Source: a virus
Lineage: Duplodnaviria > Heunggongvirae > Uroviricota > Caudoviricetes
DNA length: 64,000 bases
Reading direction: 5' to 3' (one strand)
IMG/VR virus record: IMGVR_UViG_3300037418_003103
Below are positions 3,486 through 62,249 of this stretch, one piece after another; the stretch's first letter is position 1; every line of letters begins with the position of its first letter. A program made the position numbers and the translations under genes. The notes below the pieces were generated by a model that ran no database searches, was not told where the DNA came from, and saw only the letters and a program-made list of their open reading frames with translations.

Positions 3486-4105
3486 TTAACTATACTTTCA
3501 ATGATACTATCTAAGTCATCAAGAGATCTTCCAATAGAGAGTTTATGCTCTTTGATAGCCTCAGGTACATCGTCTTCTTTTTCTTCTCCTGTGATCAGAT
3601 CTTCAACAGCCTGTTGTTCTTCTGACAATTCTTCGTCTTCTACTTCAGTAACTAACGGATCATTTCCTTCTAAATTACCTTCATTGCTAAACCCGTTCCC
3701 CTGATACTGCTGAAAAGAAGCAACATCCTCTCCAATTATATCGTTTTCAAAAACGTTTATATCTTTATATTCTCCCAGGGATTCAGAGATGCTATTAAAT
3801 TTAATATTAAGATGCCTTAATGCTTTTGCATAAGTAGGATAAGCTTCTTGCATTTTATTTTGCAATCCGCCAATATATTTAAAATCTTCAGCAATCAAAC
3901 TATTGTGCTTATCAGTAGTTTTAATGAAGTAAGTGTGATTTTCTCTTACAATGCCATAAACCAGCCCGTCAGGACCAATTTTAGTTAATTCAACAGATGA
4001 AGAATGATGTTCTTCATTTATTGGTTGTAATTTCATTAACTCCTTAATTCTATCATTGATTTCATTCCCCTTCAATCCAACTGGTTTAACTATAATACGT
4101 TTCAT
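3455..4105 (-). CDS. Hypothetical late protein (N-terminal part of putative -1 frameshift fusion)
   Basis: 216 aa ORF ending PKKKVYTLK*; GATATTTATA at 4124-4133 upstream. Confidence 0.8.
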   Translation of the reverse strand: MKRIIVKPVGLKGNEINDRIKELMKLQPINEEHHSSSVELTKIGPDGLVYGIVRENHTYFIKTTDKHNSLIAEDFKYIGGLQNKMQEAYPTYAKALRHLNIKFNSISESLGEYKDINVFENDIIGEDVASFQQYQGNGFSNEGNLEGNDPLVTEVEDEELSEEQQAVEDLITGEEKEDDVPEAIKEHKLSIGRSLDDLDSIIESIVKPKKKVYTLK

Positions 4106-33992: not shown

Positions 33993-34675
33993 GAGTATTC
34001 CATATACCGATGTCAACGGAACACGACTCTTGGGTCCGCCTGGATAAGTATGAGAAGGAGTACTTTATCCTAACTACTAATAGCAAGAGACATAACAAGG
34101 CGCTGTCCTTTAGAGTTCCCAGAGCCCAGCAGGAGAGCGTAATAGCCGACTTGCGGTCTAATTATATCCTGGCATATGGCTTTGACGGCTTTGCTGGTAG
34201 CCTGGAGTACTTTGATAAGAGCAGAGACAAGAGAGCGCAGATACTAAGGGAACTTAGGGGATGTAGCAGGAGTGAACTGATGGAGTATATCCTGGCAGGC
34301 AGAGAGTACTATAAGACACCTGATGACTGCGTTAAGTACGCTCGCCTGGAGTCCTTTGGTCTGAGGATTGCACCCAGTCCTGTCTTCATGCACCTGCAGC
34401 AGACGAGGGAGCATCTCTGCCAGATAAAGAAGGAGTGTCAGGCCCTGAGGACTGATGGGTATAGCATTTTTGATGTGGATCTGGATAACAGCAGGATCTA
34501 CGACAAGTGCAGGAGAAGACTGGGTAGTATTTTAATCAACGAGGCTCCAGAGTACCTGTATAAGGTAGTCTTGGTGGTGTATCAAATATCTCCCAGGTAT
34601 AAGGCGGTGGAATTACTTCCCTGGGTGGCCAGGGAAGCAGGCGGTAGTAAAAAAACCAAAACACCAGACTTATGA
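33989..34675 (+). CDS. Hypothetical protein flanked by 14-bp direct repeats
   Basis: 228 aa; ACTTATGAGAGTAT at 33985-33998 and 34668-34681. Confidence 0.7.
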   Translation: MRVFHIPMSTEHDSWVRLDKYEKEYFILTTNSKRHNKALSFRVPRAQQESVIADLRSNYILAYGFDGFAGSLEYFDKSRDKRAQILRELRGCSRSELMEYILAGREYYKTPDDCVKYARLESFGLRIAPSPVFMHLQQTREHLCQIKKECQALRTDGYSIFDVDLDNSRIYDKCRRRLGSILINEAPEYLYKVVLVVYQISPRYKAVELLPWVAREAGGSKKTKTPDL

Positions 34676-35946: not shown

Positions 35947-36249
35947 ATGATAACAAAATTTAGAAAAAAACCAGTAGTTATTGAAGCGGTACAATGGAAT
36001 GGAAATTCTAATAGAAAAGATATTGAAAACTTTATCGGCAAAGAATTAAAACTAGAATTAGAAAGTGAAACAGCCTATGTTGCTGGTGTTGCTGCACCAA
36101 TTTTCAGTCTATTGATTGAAACAAAAGAGGGTATTATGAAAGCCTTTAAAAATGATTGGATAATTAAAGAACCATTTCCTATAGGCGATAGAGATTTCTA
36201 TCCATGCAAGCCTGATATTTTTGAAAAGACTTATGAACCTGTTCTTTGA
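35947..36249 (+). CDS. Widespread small phage protein (KKPVVIEAVQW...YPCKPDIFEKTYE family)
   Basis: FRKKPVVIEAVQWNG, TKEG.M, DWIIK, FYPCKPDIFEKTYE. Confidence 0.8.
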   Translation: MITKFRKKPVVIEAVQWNGNSNRKDIENFIGKELKLELESETAYVAGVAAPIFSLLIETKEGIMKAFKNDWIIKEPFPIGDRDFYPCKPDIFEKTYEPVL

Positions 36250-36520
36250 GCCATTACCCTACCATACCAGATATCTCCCAGGTATAAGGCGGGGGTTCCC
36301 TTAAAAAACTACCCAAAATTCTCCCAGAAATTTTTTTTAAGAAGAGAGGGCCTAATAAATTTAGAAATTTTTTTCCCAGAAATTTTTTAGGGGGGGTCTA
36401 GATATCGCCTAAAAAACTCCAGAAATTTTCTGAACGTAATCATGCGCCCTATGCGGCAGGGGGTGGGGTAGGGGGTAGCGTAAGGGGGGTAACAGGGGGG
36501 AGGGGGTCTGCTTAAGATAA
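36250..36520. other. Convergence junction with A-tract repeats and a G-tract cluster (candidate origin/terminus/packaging element)
   Basis: CCAGAAATTTT x3 (~36324, 36376, 36419); G7 at 36390-96; six G4-G6 runs at 36459-36506; no ORF. Confidence 0.6.
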
Positions 36521-36865
36521 TGCAAATATAAGACTATTAATTCACTTAACCAAATTAATAGTCTTATATTTTCTAACTAATTAGATAAGGCTGAATCTAT
36601 CAGATCCAAAGTTGCTAACTGCATAGAAGCTCCAAAAAGAACCTGAGAAGAATGACTTAATTTTTTTCATAACGAATGATTTAATGATTAATAATGAAGT
36701 GCAAATATAAGACTAATTATTTACTTCACCAAATTTATTTTTATCTCATTTTAAAGCCCGTTAAGAAGATAAAGTGCCCAGCCTTACAAACATACTACCT
36801 GGCATTTATCCTGTCTCTATTGGCTTTATTCAGGGCTTTATTCTCATTCTAATCCATTTCATACA

Positions 36866-36904
36866 GGGCATAAAAAAACCTGCTAAGTTTAGCAGGTTTT
36901 AAAG
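36866..36904 (-). terminator. Terminator cassette copy 1
   Basis: GCATAAAAAAACCTGCTAAGTTTAGCAGGTTTT. Confidence 0.85.
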
Positions 36905-36918
36905 TGTAATCCTAAATA

Positions 36919-37857
36919 TTAATTCATGTAGGTAAGAATTTGCTCAAAGGCAAGGTTATCGATTGAAAATCCCGTGCCAACATATTTGGATTCCAAACGA
37001 GCATTTTCTCTAACGGGAACGGGCAATACATGTGAAGTGTAATGGGTTACGCCGTTAAGCAAACCGAATAGTGTTTCTCCCTGCCTTCCTGTTTCAAGTG
37101 CAATGCTTTCAAGCAATTCCTTTGTTCTGTTAAGAGCATACGCGCTATCTTCTTTGTTATCCTTTTTAAGGATGTCAACCTTTGTAATCCCCTTTACAAT
37201 TTGCGCAATGTGTTCCTGTTTAACGGGAATTTGTGAAAGTTTGATGAATTGGTCAAAGAGACTTTTTTCCTGCTCAATTACGCCATTAATTTGCCGTATT
37301 GCAGCCTCTACTTTATCGTGGATTGAAATGGTATGCCTTGCGCTGTTTTTCAGTTCCTTTTTAGCAGCATTAAAGGTATTCATGCAAACGATGTTAGTAG
37401 TAGTATTGCCCCATTTTAAAGAGGTGCTACCATCGTGAGAATTAATTGCAGTAACATAGCCATTTACGGTTGCACCAGCCTTACCAAGCCCAATGATTTT
37501 TGTATCAGTGTCCAATTGCAAATAAATTTTTGCACCCAAATTAAAGTCTCCGCCGCCTTTAATCTTATAGCCTGTTTTATCCACGATGCGAAGCAATAAT
37601 TCAGCAAGTTCTGAATTTTGAAACGGAGTATAGCCATCTTTGCAAGTTGCGAACGGATGCCTTATATCCTGTCTTACAACGGCATAAAAACCGCTATCCT
37701 TACCGTCGGGAAGAATCAATTTTTCCTTCTCTACATTCCATCTTAAACCGTACTTATCAAGCATTTCAGCAACTGCTTCCGTGTTGCTTTCGTTCTTTAC
37801 TGTCAAGCCTTCAATTGTTGAATTTAAGAGGCTGTTGATTTCATTAAAATTTTCCAT
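36919..37857 (-). CDS. DUF932/DUF945-family phage/plasmid protein (TIGR03299-like)
   Basis: GLRWNVEKE, YTPFQNSE, GAKIYLQL, NSHDGSTS, IVCMNT, GLLNGVTHY. Confidence 0.85.
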   Translation of the reverse strand: MENFNEINSLLNSTIEGLTVKNESNTEAVAEMLDKYGLRWNVEKEKLILPDGKDSGFYAVVRQDIRHPFATCKDGYTPFQNSELAELLLRIVDKTGYKIKGGGDFNLGAKIYLQLDTDTKIIGLGKAGATVNGYVTAINSHDGSTSLKWGNTTTNIVCMNTFNAAKKELKNSARHTISIHDKVEAAIRQINGVIEQEKSLFDQFIKLSQIPVKQEHIAQIVKGITKVDILKKDNKEDSAYALNRTKELLESIALETGRQGETLFGLLNGVTHYTSHVLPVPVRENARLESKYVGTGFSIDNLAFEQILTYMN

Positions 37858-38339: not shown

Positions 38340-38915
38340 TTAATCATCACTTTCAACAAGGTCACCAGCGTCATAGATTACTTCGCAGGTATCGAGAATG
38401 AACATTCTCATTTTACTTGTTCTCATTCCCTTTCTTAACTCATCCTTTGCAATGGTTAGTGCCCTTTTATTAGTCTTTGGATAGTTGCCTTCAATCAAAA
38501 TTGTTTTATTGATCTTTGAGCCAAAGGCATATATCTTATCGAGCGTTAAATGATACTTAACATTTTCACATATATGTTCGTATGCTTCCGTTTGCGCAAT
38601 ACTCATGTTTGTGTTGGGCGCTATGAGTGAATTTAATAATTCAGTACGCGCCTTTTCCAAGTCAACTAATGAACTAACATAAGTACCTTTTAAAAGGTCT
38701 AAATTGGTCAGGTAATCAATATCCTTTGCCTTCTCTCTTTCGTAATTCAAACCGATATTAATGATGTAGTTTGAAGTTTCACCATGCTTATTGGTGTAGT
38801 TGCTAATAGACAAGAAACTAACACCTGTTGGGCTATTAGCAATTTTTGCCTTCATGTCCTCAATTTTCTCAATTGTTTCTTTTCCTGTTTCAATGAGTGT
38901 AACTAAATTTTCCAT
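38340..38915 (-). CDS. Hypothetical cassette protein
   Basis: 191 aa; own promoter at 38945. Confidence 0.75.
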   Translation of the reverse strand: MENLVTLIETGKETIEKIEDMKAKIANSPTGVSFLSISNYTNKHGETSNYIINIGLNYEREKAKDIDYLTNLDLLKGTYVSSLVDLEKARTELLNSLIAPNTNMSIAQTEAYEHICENVKYHLTLDKIYAFGSKINKTILIEGNYPKTNKRALTIAKDELRKGMRTSKMRMFILDTCEVIYDAGDLVESDD

Positions 38916-61521: not shown

Positions 61522-62157
61522 TTAGTCACCAATTTTCTCGTCCAATCCCCAACCGAATAGCTGTTGGCAAACAAATCTCCCATCAAGCCAATTCTGTGCT
61601 TCACCGTCGCTTGATACCTCACTTTCAGGAAAGTGATGTTTTAATGCAATGAGTACTGCGGTAACTGTTAGATCGTACGGTCTGTATGCTGTCTTACAGA
61701 AATTAAATATCAATTTATCGTCCTTTCTCCATTCCTCTTGTTTCTCAACGCGATAAATAGAACAAGTTTCATAGCTTCCGCTTCCAACTTGCGTCAGATT
61801 ATTAAGTGGTGCACAGCGCTGAGAAATAAGATGTCCAGCAAACCAATTTCCATCAGTTTTTGAAGAAAGGGAAGTTTCGTCAGGTTCAACCAAATCAGCA
61901 TTATTCGATGGCCAAGGAATACTTAATTCTTCATTGGTAGTCCACTTACCCTTTGGTTGTGCTTCTGAGCCATTAAATTGAATTGTTTCTTCAGTTGCCT
62001 CTGGCTGGGTGTTAGGGTCTCCAAGCCCATTAGCCAATGCTATCCCTAAAACGTTTTGCGAGTAGTCAAATATTTTTTGACAATCATCAGCAAATGCCTT
62101 GAACTCTTCTTTAGTTCCAAGTGTTTCTGGCCTGCGCCAGTAATGCGTGTATCCGAT
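61522..62157 (-). CDS. Hypothetical cassette protein with non-canonical (ATC) or mutated start
   Basis: Frame extends 40 codons above TTG 62037 to ATC-GGA-TAC-ACG-CAT-TAC-TGG (xGYTHYW); FCKTAYRPYD motif. Confidence 0.65.
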   Translation of the reverse strand: MGYTHYWRRPETLGTKEEFKAFADDCQKIFDYSQNVLGIALANGLGDPNTQPEATEETIQFNGSEAQPKGKWTTNEELSIPWPSNNADLVEPDETSLSSKTDGNWFAGHLISQRCAPLNNLTQVGSGSYETCSIYRVEKQEEWRKDDKLIFNFCKTAYRPYDLTVTAVLIALKHHFPESEVSSDGEAQNWLDGRFVCQQLFGWGLDEKIGD

Positions 62158-62249
62158 AGTTGTAACGCCCTTTTGGATGCGCCCTCTTGTTTAGGTTAAT
62201 AATTAATTTGATGCTGCAAATATAAGACTAAGTTTTGAAACTACCAAAT

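Follow-up and report, generated by a model that had tools for sequence, protein, structure and literature searches.

The window analysed here, 64,000 nucleotides in length, is the reverse strand of positions 100530–164529 in a virus record of 345,454 bp, which has a G+C content of 33% and was assembled as a circle. The 127-bp 'terminal repeat' of this record has the length of a common assembler k-mer and is probably merely the circular overlap. The phage encodes a Gp23-type capsid protein and a large terminase that matches Terminase_6N and whose nearest cultured relatives are T4-type gp17 proteins with 25–28% identity; no match to Terminase_6C was obtained, and no T4 gp16-type small terminase was detected. 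There is no close cultured phage, the capsid identity being at most 43%. The non-coding locus described below, which we call the module, occupies 36264–36520 of the window and lies at 128.0–128.3 kb of the genome.

On its left side, the last gene of the plus-strand block (35947–36249, + strand), which encodes a 100-aa phrog_419-type protein, reads into the module, and our consensus scan listed no terminator-like site on either strand in 36250–36520, in agreement with an earlier note on this DNA, which had remarked that the block enters the region with no clear terminator. The 100-aa gene is widespread in phages and its flanks are not conserved across 80 loci; five jumbo contigs that carry it, whose kinship to this phage is not established, are without run clusters. 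In 36247–36390, the TGA of this gene is followed by 47 in-frame sense codons that extend across the A/T repeats, probably a product of chance and of A/T-tract bias. Farther to the left, the segment 33314–34700 contains three ORFs of 91, 94 and 228 aa whose codon use is distinct by eye, and the sliding-window G+C reaches 42–44% over 33–35 kb versus 33% in the genome, so that this island looks like a recent acquisition. Its 228-aa gene has no match in Pfam or PHROG. The left edge of the module (36264–36292) is a copy of 22–31 nt from the 3' end of this GC-rich gene, 1.7 kb away (the 22-mer 36271–36292 is exactly that of 34586–34607), and is probably a recombination scar; it runs into a G5 run at 36291–36295.

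The body of the module is tripartite and is closed by a boundary. The first part is an A/T-tract repeat domain (36313–36432) with three CCAGAAATTTT units starting at 36324, 36376 and 36419, together with G-run boxes that include a G7 at 36390–36396; the spacings of 52 and 43 bp correspond to about five and four helical turns, and the best self-match period of the domain is 52 bp. The second is a conserved core or spacer (36433–36458), which on the minus strand reads as a run, GCATAGGG, CATGAT and TTCAG. The third is an array of six G-runs on the plus strand (36459–36506), namely G5 at 36459–36463, G4 at 36465–36468, G5 at 36471–36475, G6 at 36484–36489, G6 at 36495–36500 and G5 at 36502–36506, and the strand of the neighbouring early genes thus carries the corresponding C-runs. 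A right boundary (36507–36520; TCTGCTTAAG...) follows. Direct reading bore out in full what the earlier note had reported of these elements, i.e., six G-runs in 48 bp, the last two of which form G6AG5, preceded by the three CCAGAAATTTT repeats and the G7.

Immediately to the right lies the last of 28 early promoter cassettes (36521–36571, minus strand), with a −33 TTTG and a −7 TATATTTG contained in a perfect 19-bp inverted repeat (36524–36542 and 36553–36571). The 28 copies of this Bacteroidota-type promoter, predicted from sequence, are spread over 37 kb; 26 are on the minus strand of the window (genome 91.9–128.0 kb) and the other two (91.4–91.5 kb) have the opposite orientation. An ATG-started ORF begins within 45 nt downstream in 24 of the 28 copies. 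Only two copies have no ATG-ORF of at least 25 codons starting within 150 nt behind them, and one of these is the cassette at 36521–36571, which is directed into the C-rich strand of the module. The earlier note had likewise remarked that this promoter fires into the G-run region with no ORF. The second such cassette, at about 62140–62230 on the minus strand, has behind it a stretch of higher G+C (AAGAGGGCGCATCC...GGGCG...), possibly a small RNA. Promoter-early stem-loop (PeSL) cassettes are known from T4-type phages (Arbiol et al., 2010; PMC2839356), and the 28-copy array, whose last cassette is fused to the 19-bp stem-loop, is of the same kind (PMC2839356). This assignment, which rests on a predicted host-type early promoter with a stem-loop, present in multiple copies in a hyperplastic region, concerns only the flank at 36521–36571; PeSLs are multi-copy and gene-linked, unlike the single-copy G-run module, which is unrelated to them in sequence. 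Beyond the last cassette we find a putative 29-codon ORF (36581–36670, minus strand) behind the preceding cassette promoter (36700–36738), a perfect 12-bp hairpin with flanking A/T runs (36875–36900) that forms the terminator-like end of a DUF932-family cassette gene (36919–37857, minus strand; 312 aa), and a gene for a 191-aa protein (38340–38915, minus strand), to which we return below.

Within the 345-kb genome the module stands alone. Three of the four genomic copies of CCAGAAATTTT are located in it, and its 270 bp contain 7 of the 21 C-runs of at least 5 nt and all three C-runs of at least 6 nt counted in genome orientation. Its G4Hunter score of 2.68, versus 1.8 for the next best locus, makes it the single outlier of the genome. 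The earlier note had called the G-run cluster quadruplex-capable. The strict quadruplex motif (four runs of at least three G with loops of 1–7 nt) is not present at the module, where one loop has 8 nt, whereas the pattern with loops up to 12 nt has one match in the whole genome, which is the module; the array is accordingly quadruplex-prone as judged from its sequence pattern, under the relaxed definition and not under the strict one.

For the study of conservation we collected 64 IMG/VR contigs that encode a Gp23 capsid protein with 54–79% identity. The three-run pattern was found in 11 of them, once in each; one occurrence is coding and the other 10 are non-coding module instances, all located about 29–68 kb upstream of the capsid gene and all with the G strand antisense to that gene. 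The set was then extended by a DNA pattern scan and by contigs encoding the partner protein described below to 26 instances, i.e., this phage and 25 others, every one of which has at least four G-runs of at least 4 nt on one strand. In the three complete genomes examined (345, 296 and 363 kb), there is exactly one run-cluster locus each (0–0.04 in 100 shuffles), and the module is the top G4Hunter locus in all three, with absolute scores of 2.64–2.84 versus at most 1.88 for the next. Of the ORFs of 80 aa or more located up to about 30 kb from the module, a single one has relatives in each of the other two complete genomes, and three more match one of these genomes (G010) alone; the non-coding module is far better preserved than the genes that surround it. 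Conservation in relatives, which the earlier note had proposed as a check, is thus evident from 25 further instances with one locus per complete genome (n = 3). Three other searches added no instance: an exact search with the G-core in IMG/VR gave zero matches, the promoter −7 box used as a tag for close relatives gave only single, chance-like matches per contig, and an alignment-based locus search returned known loci only. The existence of the module, its uniqueness, conservation and synteny, the phasing of its repeats and its linkage to a gene are direct observations, and it is an apparently undescribed, single-copy, non-coding element of a clade of uncultivated giant T4-like phages of Bacteroidota, with promoters of the Bacteroidota type.

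These observations also bear on the view that the locus has no function and is either a decayed remnant of horizontally acquired GC-rich DNA or a poly-G assembly artefact. The left edge does copy the end of a GC-rich gene close by, the C-rich end of one relative contig is garbled, and two-colour Illumina chemistry can produce G-rich errors. The same order of parts, however, recurs in more than 20 independent assemblies, once per genome and in syntenic position, and we consider it very improbable that the module is without function. The artefact, which the earlier note had named as one outcome that would overturn its reading, is unlikely in view of these homologous modules.

Other features that first drew attention to this locus are not shared. 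The earlier note had placed it at the point where two transcription blocks converge, and had proposed a GC-skew switch as a check. In this phage both are seen, i.e., the strands converge at the module and the local GC skew switches there. In one complete relative (G011), however, the genes on either side have the same direction and the cumulative skew goes on rising across the module, and in the other (G010) the skew minimum is about 30 kb away. The convergence, the skew switch and the dense array of near-identical cassettes are thus peculiar to this phage. Because skew in these genomes follows gene strand, as it does here over a 218-kb co-directional block, the skew at the module is weak evidence either way. 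In three relatives (L192, L196 and L199), homing-endonuclease-like ORFs of HNH or HTH type (478, 446 and 166 aa) lie beside the A/T repeats, and such neighbours are expected next to a conserved sequence.

When the instances are read on the strand of the neighbouring gene, their parts follow in a common order: a hairpin terminator, a boundary of GCCGTTCTAAGC-like sequence, the C-run array, the core and the A/T-tract repeats. The array consists of 4–9 runs of 4–9 nt, often 13–15 nt apart, with TATA-like spacers, and its C-runs are sense with respect to the neighbouring gene in 25 of the 26 instances. The core comprises a C-run, GTAC, about 10 nt, a GC-clamped TATATA, a G-run, CATGATG and TTCACGA, and in this phage it is 36433–36458 that aligns with these elements; the right boundary at 36507–36520 resembles the GCTTAGAACG boundary of the relatives. 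The A/T-tract part has 2–4 repeat units, each with a GGGGT-type box, and their most frequent period by best self-match, 52–54 bp (about five helical turns) or the double of this, is found in 12 of 24 instances; the domain at 36313–36432 is the counterpart of these 52–54-bp repeats. The repeats are near-identical inside one phage and divergent among phages. The run boxes are found in both orientations in three instances (L247, L274 and L335), and the whole array is flipped in another (L249). Because the boxes occur in either orientation, recognition of duplex DNA fits better than an RNA signal. A small ORF starting from the conserved ATGATG was considered and rejected, for the ATG is absent in several instances, and the 'KFF' peptides of this putative ORF are a by-product of A/T tracts on both strands. 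DnaA-box-like motifs were also judged unconvincing as a feature of the module; they show a local enrichment of only about 2.3-fold, are mostly AT-rich TGTTAATAA sequences in terminator stems, and are absent in this phage. In one instance (L287, about 3835–3860), two perfect DnaA-box sequences (TTATCCACA) facing in opposite directions form the terminator hairpin that follows the partner gene, an arrangement that is not general across the instances.

The gene that accompanies the module encodes a protein of about 190 aa. In 19 of the 26 instances the module is preceded, in the sense direction, by a gene of this family, which ends 108–250 nt before the array in 14 of them, and in relatives the module follows the last gene of an array of co-directional small genes. 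In this phage the member is the 191-aa gene at 38340–38915, which is separated from the module by three inserted cassettes because of cassette shuffling; the DUF932-family gene mentioned above is located in this interval. Because the 191-aa gene is situated among the host-type promoter cassettes, it may be expressed early, as an initiator would be. The family is large, with 762 cluster representatives at E ≤ 1e-3. It matches nothing in Pfam or PHROG, no initiator, helicase or DNA-binding domain can be recognised in it, and searches of deposited phage genomes gave no hit. An AlphaFold model built from 133 sequences is confident (pLDDT 89.8), whereas one built from 9 sequences is unusable (pLDDT 43). 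With the former model, Foldseek found nothing in PDB at E ≤ 0.001 and one clear match in AFDB, a 189-aa protein of 35% identity that looks like a member of the same family; a wider structural search gave only weak Sm/Hfq/WYL-like barrels (Z 4.4–6.0), echoes that may merely reflect a common structural arrangement.

We have compared the module with several known systems, and began with those that would act through RNA. The earlier note had likened the G-run array to mitochondrial CSB II and proposed a transcription-primed origin. In such an origin a G-rich transcript would engage the non-template G strand in an R-loop or a hybrid quadruplex, and DNA synthesis would be primed from the 3' end of that transcript. 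The resemblance to CSB II (G6AG7–8) is real in part, because the module likewise has close, long G-runs including a G6-A-G5 unit, a nearby promoter and quadruplex capacity; at least four G-runs of at least 4 nt are kept on one strand in every instance, and in this phage the plus-strand block enters the array with no terminator found. CSB II-type priming, as well as the hybrid quadruplexes of CSB II, needs G-runs on the non-template strand, i.e., a G-rich RNA (PMC3488243; PMC4176368). The analogy misfits at this very point, because the conserved direction of transcription yields C-rich RNA: transcripts from the abutting cassette promoter, like sense transcripts of the neighbouring gene (in 25 of 26 instances), would have the G-rich strand as template. 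G-rich RNA would be produced only by read-through from the plus-strand block of this phage, which the relatives do not have, and no promoter of the Bacteroidota type was noticed upstream of the array on the G strand in a non-exhaustive inspection by eye. CSB II furthermore lacks the palindromic core and the phased A/T repeats of the module. Priming of the CSB II type is thus improbable, and the earlier note, whose observation is confirmed and is stronger than its author could know, was right in the kind of its interpretation and wrong in the mechanism that it stated.

A non-coding RNA gene is about as improbable. The abutting promoter would in this case produce a C-rich or quadruplex-forming RNA serving as a decoy or a ligand of the neighbour protein, and the presence of a complete promoter with no ORF within 150 nt, the strong strand asymmetry and the weak Sm-like matches of the neighbour are compatible with it. 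On the other hand, no fold signal was obtained for ten instances on both strands (MFE z from −1.9 to +1.7), no relevant Rfam family was found at E ≤ 1 in the window segment 34000–39000, and the relatives have no canonical promoter at this position; the mixed polarity of the runs and the helically phased repeats point to duplex DNA.

More credit is due to a boundary of early-region transcription, which is possible, though we would not expect it to be the answer. According to this explanation, the C-run array would be an unstructured, G-poor site for Rho loading (rut), a quadruplex in the G-rich template might serve as a roadblock, release would take place over the U-rich A/T repeats, and the 190-aa protein, possibly an Sm-like barrel, might modulate termination. 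A rut site is about 60–80 nt of C-rich, G-poor, unstructured and untranslated RNA, and just such RNA is encoded on the sense strand of 36520–36440, which has no ORF. The array, C-rich, G-poor, untranslated and with no fold signal as it is, ends an early transcription unit as rut sites can, with its C-runs sense to the upstream early gene in 25 of 26 instances and, in relatives, behind the last gene of the co-directional small genes. In this phage a promoter fires into it, and the convergent block needs shielding from antisense read-through. The weak Sm/Hfq-like matches of the partner protein also suit this explanation, and the Sm-like proteins Rof and Hfq are Rho antagonists in Escherichia coli. 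Rut sites, however, need neither runs of 4–9 C nor a palindromic core nor concerted, phased repeats of 52–54 bp; the C-runs of the module are far longer than rut sites require, its core is conserved, and its polarity is not universal, being flipped in L249 and mixed in L247, L274 and L335. The relatives already carry an intrinsic hairpin terminator between the gene and the array, and an element present once per genome is unexpected where several other strand switches exist.

A packaging signal or genome end, one of the two kinds of site that the earlier note had suggested, deserves a comparable, limited credence. The two box arrays would here flank a terminase cut at the TATATA/CATGATG core, as in SPP1 pacL-pacC-pacR and herpesvirus pac1, and the site might border a long terminal repeat full of early genes. 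The layout is indeed pac-like, with a core between bent A/T repeats on one side and a G/C-run array on the other: SPP1 pacL-pacC-pacR, P1 pac and herpesvirus Pac1 share with the module two arrays of short boxes around an AT-rich core and bent A/T tracts, and in herpesvirus Pac1 G/C runs likewise flank an A/T element. Herpesvirus Pac1 moreover holds a quadruplex-prone motif that forms a quadruplex in vitro (PMC13386867), and its quadruplex-prone nature (PMC13386867) can be counted in favour of a packaging site. The module adjoins the early-gene array, and three assemblies of one relative (L250, L251 and L258) end in the array or just past it.

Several findings weigh against packaging. The large terminase is gp17-like, albeit with only 25–28% identity to its nearest cultured relatives of T4 type, and T4 packages DNA by the headful, without fixed ends. 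Pac sites are in or beside the terminase genes, whereas terL (166.5–168.3 kb of the genome) is 38 kb away from the module, and the partner gene lies among early-type promoters, unlike the terminase genes of T4, which are late. About 28 other contigs run straight through the module, and on the early side the contigs end anywhere from 1 to 95 kb away from it, with no common repeat length. The three assemblies that end at the array do so at differing positions, one of them with a garbled C-rich end, which fits trouble in sequencing at G-runs; run arrays like that of the module apparently disrupt short-read assembly. The three complete assemblies show no long terminal repeat, although one that the assembler had collapsed would escape notice: their head-tail overlaps are 127 bp in G000 and 174 bp in G011, and in G010 the last 218 bp correspond to positions 1017–1234 of the head at 96% identity. 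No long internal repeats were found in these complete genomes (G000, G011 and G010) either. The far end of an 18.97-kb contig (L259) that carries the module lies inside a gene and is uninformative on genome ends.

The class of site that the earlier note had in mind, an origin or a packaging-type site, still leads, on the ground that the module is single-copy, conserved, syntenic, phased and linked to an early gene, although the specific arguments given for it have failed. Our preferred reading, which we hold tentatively, is that the module is a cis-acting DNA site bound by protein, most likely a replication origin of the iteron type, with the neighbour as candidate initiator. We take it to be a protein-bound duplex site because its phased repeats are locus-specific and evolve in concert, its boxes occur in either orientation, its GC-clamped AT core appears meltable, it is single-copy and syntenic, and a gene of the early region is linked to it. 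That a protein binds here, which protein it is, and that the site has origin activity are what we infer from these features. The module would act as duplex DNA and serve as the binding site of a protein, for which the early neighbour of about 190 aa is the best candidate; this protein would occupy the run boxes as well as the phased, intrinsically bent A/T repeats. The complex so formed would then unwind the AT-rich core and initiate DNA replication in the manner of an iteron-type origin, and the G/C-run array would provide a stiff, structure-prone flank.

Comparison with iteron origins, such as lambda ori, plasmid oriV/oriR and T4 oriE with repEA/repEB, brings out many likenesses: locus-specific direct repeats that evolve in concert and are helically phased, an AT-rich core likely to melt, a flank rich in GC, presence in single copy, and an adjoining small early gene. 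Direct repeats at one locus are present, as seen from the three of four genomic CCAGAAATTTT copies in this phage and the 2–4 units in relatives, and an adjacent AT-rich unwinding region is present by anatomy alone, in the form of the TATATA core and the A/T-tract domain. The differences are that iteron origins have no sequence similarity to the module and no dense G/C-run array, and that the partner of the module is no known initiator. T4 oriE, moreover, is inside gene 5 and has tiny antisense ORFs of 45–50 aa; the T4 origins oriE, oriF and oriG are idiosyncratic and are built differently from the module. The repEA and repEB of T4 proved to be unrelated tiny ORFs.

Some of the results given above weigh against an origin. 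The skew or strand switch is not conserved at the module, and the DnaA-box-like enrichment is slight and missing in this phage. No domain typical of an initiator, a helicase or a DNA-binding protein can be recognised in the partner protein, and the barrels that its structure weakly echoes (Sm/Hfq/WYL-like) are of a kind that binds single strands. The strand bias of the C-runs, sense in 25 of 26 instances, would also suit a role at the level of RNA or of single strands. A further reading, which we regard as conceivable rather than likely, is that the module and the ~190-aa protein form an unrecognised two-part system, in which an oligomeric protein of Sm-like-barrel type would read G/C-run arrays and phased A/T repeats, be it as duplex, as extruded quadruplex or as single strand, and thereby license one essential event of the genome, either the initiation of replication or a sequence-specific packaging cut. 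The latter version, if true, would mean a sequence-specific cut in a phage group assumed to be headful-only.

To our knowledge, neither the replication origins nor the packaging signals of uncultivated jumbo phages are known, and the module may therefore be a handle on how giant phages start replication or cut their DNA. It is a non-coding element kept once per genome over a broad clade whose surrounding genes turn over almost completely, and it is tied to a large unannotated protein family (762 cluster representatives) with no clear solved relative. It offers a natural case for asking whether a four-tetrad quadruplex-prone array matters in a bacterial virus. Because it marks the border of a hypervariable early-gene region, it also aids in orienting and comparing metagenomic contigs of jumbo phages.

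Three contigs deserve mention in their own right. The 18.97-kb contig (L259) carries about 47 small genes, all of them oriented towards the module; the phage to which it belongs is represented by an ENA and a JGI contig, of 18,969 and 18,956 nt, which may stem from the same reads. A 38-kb contig (L262, G083) of an apparently unrelated, much smaller phage, whose head-tail overlap is just 127 bp, has at 36400–36520 a similar array, in which TATAAT spacers separate the C4–C7 runs and behind which an A/T tract lies. A further AT-rich viral contig (L308, 672–760) contains a unit of C5–8 and GTATGTAAA repeated in tandem in six or more copies, and this repeat may be a simpler relative of the run array.
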